DNA from: Candidatus Hydrogenedentota bacterium
GTDB taxonomy: Bacteria; Hydrogenedentota; Hydrogenedentia; Hydrogenedentales; CAILVY01
Direction of reading: 5' to 3'
Assembly (NCBI GenBank): GCA_903837785.1
Contig: CAILVY010000392.1
Location: forward strand, 1,140-65,139
DNA: 64,000 bases
Shown: piece by piece, positions 13,134-46,002 of the stretch
How positions within the stretch are numbered: the stretch's first letter is position 1
Layout: each line of letters starts with the position of its first letter
Made by a program: the position numbers and the translations under genes
The notes under the pieces: model-generated
Databases searched by the model: none
Seen by the model: only the letters and a program-made list of their open reading frames with translations
What the model was told of the DNA's origin: nothing

Positions 13134-14987
13134 ATGACAACTTCGTACTCGTTGTTCGGCAAGCGCCTGGTGGATCGCGGCATCATCACGCAACACCAGC
13201 TTGAAGAAGCGATGCACAAGCAGCAGACGACGATGGGGCATCGCAAGCTGGGCGAGATCCTGGTGCGGCTGGGCTACATCAGCAAGAGCCACATCACCGA
13301 AGGCCTCGCGGATCAGTTGGGCATTCCCATCGTGAAGCTGACGGACCGCGAGATTCCCGAGCGCATCCGGAGCATGGTGGACGGGGGCATCGCGACGCTG
13401 TACCGCGTCATACCCGTGGAAGAGCAGGGGCGGACGCTGGTGGTGGCGACGGCGGACCCCACGAACATCAACAACCTGGACAATCTCTCGCGGCTTCTGG
13501 ATCGGCCGGTGGACCCGGTGCTGACGACGCCGGAGGAAATCGCGTTCGCGCTGAACAAGTACTACGGCCTGCAGGAGAACACGGTCGAGACGATGCTTTC
13601 AACCGTGAGCAGCGCCAGCAGCATGAGCACGCTGAGCACGATGTCAAACCTGAGTTCGCTGGACAGTTCGCTGAGCAGCCTCGGCAGCATGAGCGCCAGC
13701 GACATCAGCATGAGCAGCATCAGCATTGACGGGGTGGATCTCGATGATTCGCCGACGCAGATGTCGACGGCGACGGACGACGAGGACGACGCGAACAATC
13801 CGGTGGTCCGCTACGTGCACCAGATGATTCTCGAAGCGTTCCGGCTGCGGGCCAGCGATATTCACGTGGAGCCGGGCAAGACCGATGTGAAGGTGCGCTA
13901 CCGGGTTGACGGCGTGCTCCAGCTGATGCCGATTCCTCCCAAGCGCGCGCAACCGGCCATCATTTCGCGCCTGAAGATCATGTCGGGCATGGACATTTCG
14001 GAGAAGCGGGTGCCGCAGGACGGCCGCATCAAGATGATGCTGGGCACGAAGATGGTGGACCTGCGCGTGAGCGCGCTGCCGGGCGTCTACGGCGAAAGCG
14101 TCGTCATGCGTATCCTGGACAAGAGCGGGCTGATGCTGGGCCTGGGGCAGTTGGGGTTCGCGCCCGAGATGCAGCGGACGTGGGAGCAGTTGCTGCACCA
14201 CGCGACCGGGGTGGTGCTCGTGACGGGCCCGACCGGTTCCGGCAAGACGACCACGCTGTATGCGTCGCTGCACACGCTGAACCAGCCCGACCGCAAGATC
14301 ATCACGGTCGAGGACCCGGTCGAGTATCAGTTGACGGGCATCAACCAGGTGCAGATAAATCACGACATTGGCTGGGACTTCGCCCGGGCGCTGCGCGCCA
14401 TCTTCCGCCAGGACCCGGACATTGTGATGGTGGGCGAGATCCGCGACCGGGAAACGGCGGAGATCGCCATCAAGGCGGCGCTCACCGGCCACCTGGTGTT
14501 TTCGACGCTGCACACGAACGACACGTCGAGTTCGTTCATCCGCATGGTGGACATCGGGATCAAGCCGTTCCTCGTGGCGTCCGGCGTGAAGGCGATCCTG
14601 GCGCAGCGGCTGGTGCGCACGATTTGCACGGCGTGCAAGGAGGTTTGCGTCCCGTCGGACTATGAGATCAAGCGGCTGGGCTTCGAGGTGGATTTGTCGA
14701 AGTCCACGCTGTACCATGGGGCGGGATGCGACAACTGCAACAAGACCGGTCATCAGGGGCGGCTTGGGGTCTATGAACTGCTCCTGACGACGGACAAGAT
14801 CCGGCAAATGCTGATGCGGAACGAGTCGGCGGCGGCGATTCGGCGCCAGGCGCGCCTGGACGGCATGTGGACGATGCGTGATGACGCATGGCGCAAGGCG
14901 CTGAACGGCATCACGACCGTGGAAGAAGTGAACCGTCGCACCCGTTCCGATGACCCGCTCCACCGCAAGATGGCCGAAGTGGTATAG
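13134..14987 (+). CDS. pilB: Type IV pilus assembly ATPase PilB (MshEN N-domain, Ser-rich linker)
   Basis: Walker [35 protein letters not shown], tetra-Cys CTAC...CDNC. Two MshEN-like motifs at the N-terminus. GGAG lies 8 nt upstream of ATG 13134. The ORF-track start at 13080 was rejected. Confidence 0.92.
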
Positions 14988-14998
14988 GAGAACGCACG

Positions 14999-45600: not shown

Positions 45601-46002
45601 GAAGTGCGCACGAAGACCGGGACCAAGACCTTCACCCAGAAGTCTGTGGTGAACGAAACGGAAGTGACGAGCGAGATCAACCTGCCCAGCACCTCGTGGC
45701 AGGCGGTGTGGACCAACGTGATCGTGCATGACGGCGACACACTGGTGCTCGGCGGACTGGTTCAGGACAATTCGTCCAAGAGCACCGACAAGCTGCCGTA
45801 CATCGCGGACATTCCCGTGCTTGGCTTCTTCTTCAAGGGCAAGTCCCGTTCGGTGCAGCAATCCAGCCTGCTGATCTTCGTCACGCCGACCATCGTGGAT
45901 TCGACCGGCGCGCGCTTTTTCAGCATGTCGGGTTCGCAGGGCGGCCGCTCTTCGATCGGCCGTTTGCCGGATTCGCTGCCGTCAAAGAAGTCCAAGAAAT
46001 AG
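42685..46002 (+). CDS. pilQ: PilQ-type secretin with N-terminal TPR region and Gly/Met/Tyr repeat insertion
   Basis: Signal peptide ...LLMCALPAMA/Q. TPR-like segment (YLRRGVALYKRDLYREALTEFNRALALDP). N0/STN-like VSVEFEDIHISEIVTFISD. Secretin core LLSAPRVTTMNRKPAII, VIVHDGDTLVLGGLV, IPVLGFFFKG, LLIFVTPTIV. GGGAGGAAG RBS before ATG 42685. Confidence 0.9.
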   Translation: MNTGLVRTITAGCLAVLLMCALPAMAQDSSQAPASAPAKEDAAAPAVGAAIVAPAPAPEAESADPQEYLRRGVALYKRDLYREALTEFNRALALDPKLEEAKSYAEKCSAKLQVSAAGIDTSSVPVFETVDPETIKAGETPQKSADEIKRERVKVLMNDAQRYLEAERYATAVEIYSNVLLIDPNNREANEGLHKATLGAHEDSMKESQKEVTEDRAMIRDLIEKKKMLPQGADATGIKPYRFAVPEIEEEHVVETEKSKVEETLDSPVSVEFEDIHISEIVTFISDSWGMNIVIDTRAVEPPKRVNPAAVAATPGGPGAPAPFPGPAGAGAARPGLPAVAAGGARPGQGGNRPGGASRPFGGGGVPGYGAAAPMGGGSGAAVDYAYGAKSDGIVPYINLKDVSLAQALQALLRPLGLDYSVQPGFIWISKPEIIRQETFEELETRYYELRNAGAETLWKVVLRNRFGGFGGSGGGYGGGMGGGMYGGGMGGRMGGMGGGLYGGGMGGMGGMGGGMYGGGMSGGYGGGMGGYGGGMGGYGGGYRETGLTGQSSSGAADGLSYAQPQMGGYGGYGGGMSGGYGGGMGGGYGGGMGGMGGGMYGGGMGGMGGMGGGMYGGGMGGRMGGMGGMGGMGGMGGGSGMDVTAVSNISDLFSSISDMMVGEPPATIGAVGMTGLGSRRGGAGMTGGLGAGSRVGSLGATSDDSSSSVLDSLDILLHSLPDVKEPYTQELLSSKFYNTATNVLVVKNTKSNLDKFEKVLAEVDVTPKQVSIEAKFLTVRTTDLDKIGFKWDATLSDLNNRTRQIPTAAASTYSYDVNGDGVDEEIPFYSRPDGSQVIRNTVTSATIGALTSPATTGVPALSLAGKILENKDGDSLGVTFDFVDSLTESELLSAPRVTTMNRKPAIIADFATEYFVSQVNNEIYTSQAGFGGTPTTSYIQNVTPVSFNFGIAFSVTPQIRDNDQVRLWLNPEVRTKTGTKTFTQKSVVNETEVTSEINLPSTSWQAVWTNVIVHDGDTLVLGGLVQDNSSKSTDKLPYIADIPVLGFFFKGKSRSVQQSSLLIFVTPTIVDSTGARFFSMSGSQGGRSSIGRLPDSLPSKKSKK
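44086..44610 (+). repeat. Coding low-complexity repeat: two blocks of GGM/GGY/GGMYGG units (about 175 aa) inside pilQ
   Basis: The DNA is built from reiterated GGCGGCATGGGCGGC-type units. The two blocks are separated by a ~75-nt unique linker (about 44311-44385). Confidence 0.95.

Follow-up and report, generated by a model that had tools for sequence, protein, structure and literature searches.

A probable retractable type IVa-class pilus locus of Hydrogenedentota with two extension ATPases and a giant K-type pseudopilin

A gene cluster in a 64-kb stretch of Hydrogenedentota DNA (hereafter the window) probably encodes a retractable type IVa-class pilus (T4aP) machine that carries a giant K-type protein at its tip and serves adhesion or capture by retraction. 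The cluster spans positions 13134-46002, with every gene on the + strand, and comprises genes for two PilB/GspE-family ATPases (B1 and B2) with PilT between them, the platform protein PilC, five prepilin-class proteins (p1-p4 and the giant), the exported protein BIG2, an FGE/PEGA lipoprotein, a PilM-transmembrane fusion, two bitopic proteins and a secretin (Table 1). All of these elements had been placed in one co-directional locus by the initial annotation, and each was found at the position given there. PilT, a PilC platform, PilM, a secretin and prepilin-type pilins are T4aP parts, and the sequences are best read as a filament that retracts and has a K-type tip. What is unusual in this type IV pilus (T4P) cluster, as judged from the predicted proteins, is the combination of two extension motors with a pilin-class protein of ~3,000 residues.

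Table 1. Predicted features of the pilus cluster and its flank in the window
Feature	Positions	Strand	Length (aa)	Remarks
Complete T2SS operon, GspD-E-F-G x3-H-I-J-K-L-M	115-11981	+		directly upstream of pilus cluster
Sigma-70-like promoter match	12922-12950	+		upstream of B1; consensus match only
B1, PilB/GspE-family extension ATPase	13134-14987	+	617	T2SSE E=3e-134; MshEN c-di-GMP motif; Ser-rich linker
PilT retraction ATPase	14999-16105	+	368	TIGR01420 468 bits
B2, second PilB/GspE-family extension ATPase	16117-17874	+	585	T2SSE E=3.5e-133; MshEN c-di-GMP motif
PilC/GspF platform protein	17919-19163	+	414	T2SSF twice
p1, G-type pilin, candidate major pilin	19269-20168	+	299	N_methyl; N-terminus best matched by GspG
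p2, H-type minor pilin	20204-21091	+	295	N_methyl; weak GspH match, N-terminus
p3, I-type minor pilin	21088-21516	+	142	weak GspI, PilV and ComGE matches
p4, J-type minor pilin	21630-23189	+	~519	N_methyl at ORF residues 112-137; weak GspJ match
Giant K-type (GspK/PilX-family) pseudopilin	23364-32396	+	3,010-3,036	lamin-tail domain; six D-x-D-x-D-G motifs; conserved C-terminal strands
BIG2, Sec-exported protein, PilY1/MshQ position	32551-37122	+	1,514-1,523	Sec signal
FGE/PEGA lipoprotein	37233-38660	+	475	three PEGA domains; FGE-sulfatase E=5e-47; lipobox LLAAGC
Sigma-70-like promoter match, 11/12	38704-38732	+		in 219-nt gap before pilM; consensus match only
PilM + TM helix + coiled coil + Pro/Gly-rich periplasmic part	38880-41096	+	738	GspL topology
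Bitopic protein, PilO position	41093-42088	+	331	N-terminal TM helix; conserved in cassette
Bitopic protein, PilP position	42107-42616	+	169	N-terminal TM helix; conserved in cassette
Secretin	42625-46002	+	1,125	TPR, STN, Gly/Met/Tyr-rich region, secretin domain; PF00263 E=8e-35

The order of the cassette was invariant in 42 of the 43 related loci with enough flank for the comparison (7 kb or more upstream of the giant), and this recurrence rules out a chance arrangement. The order was also kept in the most distant homologue (L079). The initial annotation had named unlinking of the second ATPase and the giant gene in relatives as grounds for rejecting its reading; the two remain linked across the phylum, and this objection therefore fails. 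Its guess at Planctomycetes was not borne out, as all named homologues belong to Hydrogenedentota, for which a literature search returned no cultured representative. Identity between the window and a related locus (L085) is 73-85% for the motors and 26-47% for the tip proteins, as is typical of exposed adhesins. No gene for the prepilin peptidase PilD was found among the ORFs scanned in the window; because pilD is often located elsewhere in the genome, its absence here is weak evidence.

By sequence, PilT is the retraction motor. It scored 468 bits on TIGR01420 (cutoff 319.1) and ~370 and 279 bits against PDB chains of PilT and PilU, respectively, and it carries the 10-letter PilT signature motif at residue 291, in agreement with the earlier description of a true PilT flanked by two assembly ATPases. 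Both flanking proteins have a T2SSE domain, and for both the best model was TIGR02538 PilB (617 bits for B1, 604 for B2), followed by GspE at 580 bits each, all of these scores lying below the curated cutoffs of 675.65 and 630 bits; B1 also scored 55 bits on NF053729 (cutoff 38). B1 and B2 share 38% identity. The initial annotation had proposed to place the ATPases by phylogeny, and a neighbor-joining tree did so in part: B1 forms a clade with 100% bootstrap support and at least 74% identity across the phylum, and B2 a separate clade, also with 100% support, that is not sister to B1. Neither falls within a reference clade, and both lie outside the proteobacterial GspE clade (100% bootstrap). 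According to the tree, each of the two belongs to an old lineage of its own.

Both proteins look catalytically competent, with intact Walker A, Walker B, His box and zinc-binding CxxC...CxxC Cys motifs. These motifs speak against the improbable alternative that one of the two is a c-di-GMP-sensing regulator, or the motor of a filament encoded elsewhere, as do the short spacing of both genes from pilT and pilC (11-44 nt), the B1-PilT-B2 order shared by every related locus of sufficient flank, and the GspE and GspF that the adjacent T2SS already has of its own. That alternative draws on the MshEN c-di-GMP motifs in both proteins, on the unusual Ser-rich linker and very tightly constrained sequence of B1, and on the finding that extension ATPases are usually system-specific (PMC11656802). 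Two extension motors on a single T4aP have, however, an experimental precedent in A. baylyi PilB and TfpB (PMC8213720), so that the paralogue pair is not in itself distinctive. There, as here, two divergent extension ATPases accompany PilT in one pilus system, and the distance between the paralogues is about equal to the distance of each from GspE. Unlike the A. baylyi pair, both genes flank pilT here in one operon-like block, and neither product is a TfpB orthologue (NF053534 461 bits for B1 and 452 for B2, cutoff 850). By analogy with A. baylyi, B1 and B2 may divide the labour, one of these MshEN-bearing motors starting assembly on the bulky tip and the other driving processive elongation.

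The single platform protein, reported as such by the initial annotation, scored slightly higher on GspF (421 bits) than on Myxococcus-type PilC (417 bits), and a complete T2SS operon adjoins the cluster on its upstream side in every relative checked (L085, L086 and L087). These observations, the G-type major pilin, the K cap without Glu5, the GspL topology of the PilM fusion (89% hhalign probability against the GspL cytoplasmic domain) and a GspE-annotated protein as the nearest neighbour of B1 outside the phylum would suit a second T2SS-like secretion machine, whose short pseudopilus with a GspK-type cap exports or displays two giant proteins. We consider this machine unlikely to a high degree. 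Every locus has a bona fide PilT between its two ATPases, and the cytoplasmic domain of the fusion passes the PilM model (TIGR01175 167 bits, cutoff 133); a T2SS differs from the cluster on both points. Further, B1 and B2 lie outside the GspE clade and below the GspE cutoff, GspC was looked for and none was found, and the separate, complete T2SS next door has its own GspE above the curated cutoff (679 versus 630 bits).

The five pilin-class genes mirror the G-H-I-J-K genes of that T2SS operon at 4502-9971, as the initial annotation had observed. The prepilin N-termini of p1-p4 and the giant (GFTLVELLVV, GFSLVELIVV, GFTLLEVLVA, GLTMAELLVA and GAALIIAIGI) mirror the T2SS set (GFTLVELMVV, GFTLLELTVV, GFTLIEVMAA, GFTIVELLVA and GVALILALLF); that of the giant is the only one of the five without Glu5. 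An N_methyl domain was detected in four pilins of the cluster, and the start of p4 was placed near 21630 rather than at the ORF start at 21312. The gene order had been taken as T2SS logic mixed with T4P parts. Because classical T4aP minor-pilin operons (fimU-pilV-pilW-pilX-pilY1) have the same H-I-J-K order, with a gene for a large exported protein next in line (PMC13533445, PMC13190605), this logic is not distinctive, and there is no such mix. In the retractile T4aP that we favor, p1 is the likely fibre subunit, and p2, p3, p4 and the giant correspond by sequence to H, I, J and K in the tip-initiation set.

The cluster shares a PilB-like ATPase, PilT, PilC, PilM and a secretin with the T4aP of Myxococcus xanthus, Pseudomonas aeruginosa and Geobacter, as well as adjacent pilB-pilT-pilC genes and minor pilins H-I-J-K followed by a large exported protein. 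It differs from classical T4aP in the second PilB paralogue between pilT and pilC, in a K protein of 2,000-3,300 aa compared to ~200-500 aa, in a PilY1-position protein without a PilY1 domain, in the fusion of PilM to a transmembrane partner, in the FGE/PEGA lipoprotein inside the locus, and in its arrangement as one single locus joined to a T2SS operon.

Profile comparisons indicate that the giant gene product is a true GspK/PilX-family pseudopilin. Its gene directly follows p4, and its N-terminus (RRRNDSG-AALIIAIGIMV) is of the class III signal type. The GspK model NF037980 matched residues 37-112 only, with 27.6 bits against a curated cutoff of 130, and there was no T2SSK Pfam match to the giant. 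By contrast, hhalign aligned the N-terminus to GspK with E=4.8e-5, and a GspK HMM matched the N-terminus in 83 of 83 giant homologues. Five conserved blocks, picked by eye and concatenated into a mini-K, were collinear with GspK (hhalign 98.1% probability, E=7.9e-14). With the N-terminal helix removed, the blocks still gave 89% probability and scored 50.3 against the GspK alignment, compared to 18.4 ± 6.3 (maximum 36.2) for 60 random block sets. The GspK motifs follow in GspK order (DEaSKxNLN, a helix-hairpin-helix (HhH)-like segment retained as IKQVNGIGDTIFDRL, and GRINxNT) and are split by two insertions of ~450 and ~1,950 aa. The giant thus shares with T2SS GspK the lack of Glu5, the order of the motif blocks and conserved strands at the extreme C-terminus, and differs from it in its low GspK score and in insertions totalling ~2,400 aa. 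The predicted architecture is a K-type helix and GspK blocks, with ~2,400 aa of extracellular modules (Ca-type D-x-D-x-D-G loops, a lamin-tail domain and beta-sandwiches) housed inside the pilin fold. Giant homologues span 2,000-3,300 aa. In one lineage a giant homologue lies remote from any pilus gene (locus L030, probably also L032).

The giant probably sits at the pilus tip. Its C-terminal element lies at most 20 aa from the end in 36 of the 39 homologues that carry it, 18 of which have the exact ...YER end. AF2 predicted this element as a helix and two long strands (pLDDT ~70-83), in single-chain models of at most 1,200 aa, the hairpin being 2,900 aa from its partner sheet in the full protein. 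Two AF2 models of the giant were poor (mean pLDDT 51 and 53), and Foldseek searches with the giant models returned nothing significant. GspK closes its own sheet in cis in the T2SS tip GspH-I-J-K (3CI0-type complexes; PMC13533445), and the same source describes beta-strand addition both in cis and in trans, as well as K homologues with large insertions. We infer that the conserved helix-strand-strand end of the giant closes its own sheet in cis, like GspK and CpaL; since hhalign left the last strands unaligned to the GspK C-terminus, cis closure has as its basis the sequence pattern and a hairpin of medium confidence. In CpaL/TadG of Tad pili, ComZ-type proteins and the V. cholerae competence K, a large insertion separates the pilin sheet from the donor C-terminal strand (PMC13533445); they follow the same logic of a pilin-like tip with an adhesin or function module in cis. 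These proteins are at most ~600 aa and belong to systems without a PilY1-position partner, whereas the giant exceeds them fivefold in size, and the gene after it encodes a further large candidate tip protein.

That candidate, BIG2, is always encoded by the next gene after the giant and is 978-2,481 aa long among relatives. Conservation is confined to its C-terminal third and extreme C-terminus (TPA..F.V...[DE][EDK]QP[IV]K...RE). The variable N-terminus carries Beta_helix (right-handed; 12 of 26 proteins), TIG (3 of 26) or CHRD (1 of 26) modules. The "multi-CBM" label given to the window copy has as its basis repeated NGxFE...FYVDD motifs and one weak profile match to CBM_4_9 (E=0.01). BIG2 and the lipoprotein, with a Sec signal and a lipobox, respectively, bear out the earlier mention of two large accessory exported proteins. 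BIG2 shares with the PilY1/PilC and MshQ adhesins a gene position right after K, Sec export, a variable N-terminus, and a conserved C-terminal domain and extreme C-terminus. It differs from PilY1/PilC in that neither the window BIG2 nor 25 relatives had a Pfam match to the PilY1/Neisseria_PilC domain and PDB profiles gave no match; the conserved C-terminal domain matched no known family. This PilY1-type layout suggests that BIG2 is a PilY1- or MshQ-like tip protein whose putative N-terminal binding modules are swapped between lineages.

Because the BIG2 family has beta-helix, TIG and CBM-like modules, a glycan or surface is a more likely target than DNA. This argues against a pilus devoted mainly to DNA uptake (competence) through a DNA-binding K-type tip, to which we give little credence. 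Its attraction lies in the T4aP of Thermus and V. cholerae, which have a large K insertion, lack PilY1 and are competence pili (PMC13533445), and in the HhH-like segment and lamin-tail domain of the giant. However, ordinary GspK, which is no DNA binder, also has the HhH-like segment, a candidate adhesin occupies the PilY1 position, and neither ComEA, ComEC nor DprA was found in the locus or the window. The initial annotation had instead proposed a "fishing" device for polysaccharide or particles, with the two PilB paralogues driving either two states of the filament or cycles with and without cargo, which we regard as doubtful. The glycan-type modules of BIG2 fit such a device, as do the top Foldseek matches to the confident C-terminal region of the giant (CBM35, CBM6 and CBM51 jelly rolls, all weak and none significant), the fucosidase, F5/8-type-C proteins, sulfatase and sugar ABC importer also encoded in the window, and the rhamnosidase and BNR sialidase-like genes flanking the orphan giant of L030. 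Yet these fold matches are below significance, the neighbour shown to be conserved is the T2SS operon, and a single platform protein and a single pilin set sit poorly with two filament states.

In the favored T4aP machine, the parts that span the envelope are, by sequence, PilC, the PilM fusion, the pair of small bitopic proteins and the secretin. The fusion had been called PilM-N: the PilM part and the transmembrane helix were confirmed, and the PilN part found no sequence match. The 331- and 169-aa proteins owe their PilO-like and PilP-like labels to position, size and topology; searches of these two proteins and of the periplasmic portion of the fusion with Pfam, NCBIfam, PDB profiles and hhalign gave no match, and neither protein resembles a known family. 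The secretin scored 120 bits on PF00263 and 147 bits on the PilQ subfamily model, below its cutoff of 284. The best NCBIfam match of the PilM fusion was the Amuc_1101 family (245 bits) of the Akkermansia Amuc_1098-1102 cluster, the secretin weakly matched Amuc_1098, and p1 and p3 weakly matched proteins D, C and B of the Verru_Chthon pilin cassette of PVC bacteria, but all of these scores are far below curated cutoffs; the giant had no match to Verru_Chthon models at E<=0.01. The FGE/PEGA lipoprotein is present in related loci that reach far enough downstream of the giant, and probably plays a structural, non-catalytic part close to the outer membrane. Like GldK/PorK of the type IX ring, it is a lipoprotein with an FGE-sulfatase fold whose gene lies within the locus of a trans-envelope machine; unlike them, it has three PEGA domains and no other T9SS parts beside it, and it scored 81.7 bits on the equivalog model TIGR03525 (cutoff 350).

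BIG2 may dock to the pilus tip through its conserved last residues by beta-strand addition, a step less easily explained if the giant K already completes its sheet in cis. The pilus would extend with its very large tip and bind a target, and PilT would then pull it back.

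The initial annotation had described the pilus locus (13134-46002) as a single co-directional array, and our ORF listing and Pfam/NCBIfam scans bore this out and placed it on the + strand. The predicted retraction ATPase, PilT, carries its ten-residue signature motif at residue 291 and scored 370 bits against PilT chains in the PDB compared to 279 bits against PilU. The N-termini of the five pilin-class proteins read, in order, GFTLVELLVV, GFSLVELIVV, GFTLLEVLVA, GLTMAELLVA, and GAALIIAIGI. As the annotation had noted, they parallel the G-H-I-J-K series of the adjacent T2SS operon (4502-9971). 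Both K proteins lack Glu5. However, the mirrored order is not the distinctive T2SS logic that it was taken to be, as this is the ordinary logic of type IVa minor-pilin operons. The parts of the locus are best read as a type IVa-class retractile pilus. With the mirrored pilins on one side of the balance and PilT on the other, we consider a secretion-type pseudopilus improbable. The unusual features are the size of the K protein, a non-homologous partner in the PilY1 position, a second extension ATPase, and a lipoprotein with an FGE-sulfatase domain.

Genes of the pilus locus, with coordinates in the window
Feature	Position	Strand	Domains or supporting evidence
B1, extension ATPase	13134-14987	+	T2SSE + MshEN
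PilT	14999-16105	+	TIGR01420 468 bits, cutoff 319
B2, extension ATPase	16117-17874	+	T2SSE + MshEN
PilC/GspF	17919-19163	+	T2SSF
Four prepilin-type genes (p1-p4)	starts 19269, 20204, 21088, ~21630	+	N_methyl
Giant, 3,036 aa	23286/23364-32396	+	K-type pseudopilin evidence
BIG2, 1,523-aa exported protein	32551-37122	+	Sec signal
PEGA + FGE-sulfatase lipoprotein	37233-38660	+	lipobox
PilM family protein	38880-41096	+	then TM helix (378-396), coiled coil, Pro/Gly-rich tail
Two small proteins (PilO/PilP positions)	41093-42088, 42107-42616	+	single N-terminal TM helix each
Secretin, 1,125 aa	42625-46002	+	TPR/STN/secretin

Intergenic gaps within the ATPase block are 11-44 nt, and the intervals before p1, BIG2, the FGE lipoprotein, and pilM are wider (105-219 nt). 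Sigma-70-like sites at 12922-12950 and 38704-38732 (11/12 matches) were the only two well-placed promoter-like sites, in promoter and terminator scans whose site counts were not above shuffled expectation. An inverted repeat with an 11-bp stem (38683-38711) overlaps the -35 element of the site before pilM and could be an operator.

The sequence of the giant gene identifies it as a K-type pseudopilin. The N-terminus of the protein matched the curated GspK model over residues 37-112 (27.6 bits) and the window's own GspK by hhalign (E=4.8e-5), and a PilX_N domain is precomputed on one homologue. An HMM built from five T2SS GspK proteins matched the first ~70 residues in 83/83 giant homologues and gave faint collinear matches at both signature motifs of GspK, DEaSKvNLN (~residue 612 of the giant) and GRINiNT (~2,775). 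When five conserved blocks (residues 27-135, 590-640, 765-815, 2755-2805, and 2950-3025), picked by eye and to that extent biased, were concatenated, they aligned collinearly with GspK (98.1% probability, E=7.9e-14). With the helix left out, the remaining four blocks scored 50.3, compared to 18.4 +/- 6.3 (maximum 36.2) for 60 random block sets. Over its entire length the protein is a mosaic of more and less conserved segments, and residues 1,800-2,000 are hypervariable. It also carries a lamin-tail domain (1,369-1,444) and six D-x-[DN]-x-[DN]-G motifs. Among the most conserved parts is the C-terminus (MANLITTRSDVFEI..VT.QSGYG.D.NGDG.INYR...EF..TAE.K.R.VYER), and 18 of 39 homologues end exactly in ...YER. 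This pattern resembles the last strands of GspK from E. coli and from the window, and AF2 modeled the region as a helix and two long strands (pLDDT about 70-83). The equivalence of the two C-termini was not confirmed by hhalign, and we therefore only infer that the giant closes the pilin sheet in cis. In the AF2 model of the N-terminal 1,200 aa (mean pLDDT 50.9) the long N-terminal helix was the one clear feature, and Foldseek found nothing in the PDB at E<=0.001. The model of the C-terminal 1,199 aa (mean pLDDT 52.9) gave jelly-roll/CBM matches, none significant, and the family profile had no match among PDB sequences. The giant is the largest pilin-class protein met in our searches.

An ORF of 978-2,481 aa follows the giant in every locus that extends past it. 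In the window this is BIG2, which is conserved only in its C-terminal third (residues ~900-1,500) and ends in TPA..F.V...[DE][EDK]QP[IV]K...RE. Its N-terminal modules vary by lineage, with a right-handed beta-helix in 12/26, TIG in 3/26, and CHRD in 1/26. BIG2 shares its layout and gene position with PilY1, PilC, and MshQ (PMC13533445, PMC13190605). However, no PilY1 domain was detected in the window copy or its relatives with Pfam or with a PDB profile. A word-indexed homologue search returned only BIG2 itself. The window copy contains five NGxFE...FYVDD units and a weak CBM_4_9 match. The annotation's reading of the locus as a glycan-fishing device with two filament states could draw on this match and on the jelly-roll/CBM hits of the giant; as the former is weak and none of the latter is significant, we find it doubtful.

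The FGE lipoprotein is a conserved member of the cassette. Its fold is similar to that of PorK/GldK, a ring protein of the T9SS, and GldK/PorK was its best specific match (82 bits, cutoff 350). By eye, the catalytic cysteine pair of FGE is absent. A DGR targeting this FGE-fold protein was considered and rejected, as the window has no template/variable repeat pair. The PilM fusion has a GspL-like topology and best matches the Akkermansia Amuc_1101 family in NCBIfam; its C-terminal third ends in Pro/Gly-rich tracts (PPGPPGPPGPP). Family profiles of the two small proteins found nothing in the PDB or in GspM, GspL, and GspC alignments, and they fit PilO and PilP by position and topology only. In the secretin, long Gly/Met/Tyr-rich repeats (GGGMGGGMYGG..., 44095-44655) separate the N-terminal domains from the secretin core.

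The two extension ATPases are 38% identical to each other, and B1 and B2 are 41% and 40% identical, respectively, to the window's GspE. Walker A, Walker B, the His box, and the CxxC...CxxC zinc motif are intact in both, and both exceed the cutoff of the MshEN c-di-GMP motif model (55 bits for B1 and 63 for B2, cutoff 38). Both look like working motors. That one of them instead acts as a regulator, an idea that the c-di-GMP motifs favor and the intact catalytic motifs speak against, strikes us as unlikely. The top NCBIfam model was PilB (617 bits for B1, 604 for B2), followed by GspE (580), all under the curated cutoffs. We rejected PDB bit scores as a discriminator because even the window's own bona fide GspE gets better scores with PilB chains. 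The annotation had called for an ATPase phylogeny, and we built a neighbor-joining tree (61 taxa, 384 columns of the ATPase core, 100 bootstraps) with references from PDB alignments, E. coli K-12, P. aeruginosa, N. gonorrhoeae, and A. baumannii that lacked MshE and TfpB. B1 and B2 formed separate clades (each 100% bootstrap) that were not sisters; B2 joined two non-phylum representatives (97%). Neither belonged to the proteobacterial GspE clade (100%) or to the Myxococcus/Geobacter PilB clade (98%). Bootstraps in the deep backbone were <25%, and the tree thus does not place B1 or B2 relative to PilB, GspE, or MshE. The sequence of B1 is under tight constraint, with >=74% identity in all of the best 120 clusters. 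Among 1.84 billion representatives one was 69% identical and all others <=50%, a steep fall beyond the same-phylum orthologues. Its closest relative outside the phylum is an annotated GspE from Omnitrophota. Collectively, the sequence and tree results argue that B1 and B2 are paralogues older than the radiation of the phylum. Many of the top-scoring extra-phylum relatives of B1 (P0224-P0238) are ~1,000 aa with two matched stretches and look like tandem double T2SSE-ATPase fusions. In B1 itself, a Ser-rich low-complexity linker (residues ~147-200) joins the MshEN region to the ATPase core.

The 83 giant homologues range from 1,746 to 3,431 aa, and all named ones belong to Candidatus Hydrogenedentes/Hydrogenedentota, which displaces the earlier guess of Planctomycetes. 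A scan with one genome per species yielded 76 loci, titled Hydrogenedent- (~49), "uncultured Nitrospirales/Nitrospiraceae" (18), unlabelled bacteria or metagenome assemblies (8), and "Bathyarchaeia" (1). All 18 Nitrospirales/Nitrospiraceae-labelled loci come from a single MAG submission series; because they and the "Bathyarchaeia" locus hold the same cassette, these titles are probably labelling errors in public records. Comparison of the window proteins with related loci by tblastn and blastp recovered the order B1-T-B2-C-p1-p2-p3-p4-giant-BIG2-FGE-M-O-P-Q wherever sequence exists. Linkage of the second ATPase to the giant held: the order was kept in 42/43 loci with >=7 kb 5' of the giant, and B1, T, and B2 were present in 23/24 loci with ~10 kb. 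Even the locus with the remotest homologue (L079, a 1,746-aa K) has the same cassette. The exception is L030 (9950-18739, Ca. Hydrogenedens sp. AS10tlH2TH_339), and probably L032, where a full-length 2,929-aa giant homologue has no pilus genes nearby. In L030 it lies downstream of genes for a TPR protein, APS kinase, MFS transporter, ABC ATPase, and alpha-L-rhamnosidase and upstream of those for a cyclase, a BNR sialidase-like protein, and a transketolase-like protein. The B1 homologue and representative searches did not reveal this architecture in any second phylum. Between the window and the related locus L085, the motors are 73-85% identical and the tip proteins only 26-47%, a pattern one would expect of exposed binding proteins. 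A competence pilus seems to us a poor prospect, as genes for ComEA, ComEC, and DprA are absent from the locus and the window.

The T2SS operon D-E-F-G-H-I-J-K-L-M (115-11981) lies directly 5' of B1 and is co-directional with it, and the same was true of all three relatives inspected (L085, L086, and L087). No GspC was seen in these four operons. The adjacency therefore points to a conserved unit of ~46 kb comprising T2SS and pilus. The T2SS GspE of the window passes the GspE cutoff (679 bits compared to 630) and also has the MshEN c-di-GMP motif. There are three tandem GspG paralogues in the window (4502-5999) and one in the relatives; the middle copy (4935-5396) has no prepilin cleavage/methylation motif and may be degenerate. 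The T2SS GspK, at 563 aa, is long for its family and contains a tandem (GGVNS)n low-complexity repeat with 15-nt units (9549-9689). The gap between the T2SS and B1 (11982-13133) is 1.15 kb in the window compared to ~200-400 nt in relatives and contains a 172-aa ORF on the minus strand (12204-12722) that matches no family.

In the mechanism we favor, the K-type cap, closed in cis, would bear its own adhesin, BIG2 would dock through its terminal strand, and PilT would retract the pilus. B1 and B2 might divide their labor as proposed for TfpB and PilB (PMC8213720, PMC11656802). In its fullest form, which we put forward tentatively and at low confidence, the model would be a phylum-specific capture-and-retrieve organelle: a T2SS-fused cassette with a two-part tip of >500 kDa, a second motor, and an FGE ring. 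One part of the tip would be the K-type pseudopilin with its built-in adhesin and the other the PilY1-like partner, docking via a new kind of C-terminal strand. An oversized tip and an unusually large secretin would then create the need for a dedicated second motor and a PorK-like FGE ring.

PilY1 adhesin domains of >3,000 residues and K homologues with large insertions are already known (PMC13533445), as are two extension motors on a single pilus (PMC8213720). Each principle has precedent, and the locus therefore extends the known type IV pilus family, widening its range and overturning nothing established. A K-type tip pilin with thousands of inserted residues beside a PilY1-position partner offers a natural test case, since a single system may combine tip-licensing signals in cis and in trans, a point of relevance to the 2026 beta-strand-addition model. 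Extension motors on both sides of pilT add a second, independent system in which to study the need for two on a single pilus, and a third test case is the presence of an FGE-fold lipoprotein among type IV pilus genes. Literature searches returned nothing on pili of Hydrogenedentota, on pilins with a lamin-tail domain, or on FGE lipoproteins encoded in pilus loci, and no cultured representative was found in the literature searched. Members of the phylum occur widely in digesters, sediments, and groundwater. Few large surface machines that are conserved throughout the phylum can be read from their genomes, and the cassette is among them.

Downstream of the secretin (46065-62970), the window encodes a Kdo-transferase-like glycosyltransferase, a sugar ABC importer, a sulfotransferase, and an alpha-L-fucosidase, together with an LPG-synthase-TM + sulfatase fusion (52661-55867) and a 1,315-aa ThuA / 3-keto-disaccharide hydrolase / HEAT / F5-8-type-C protein.
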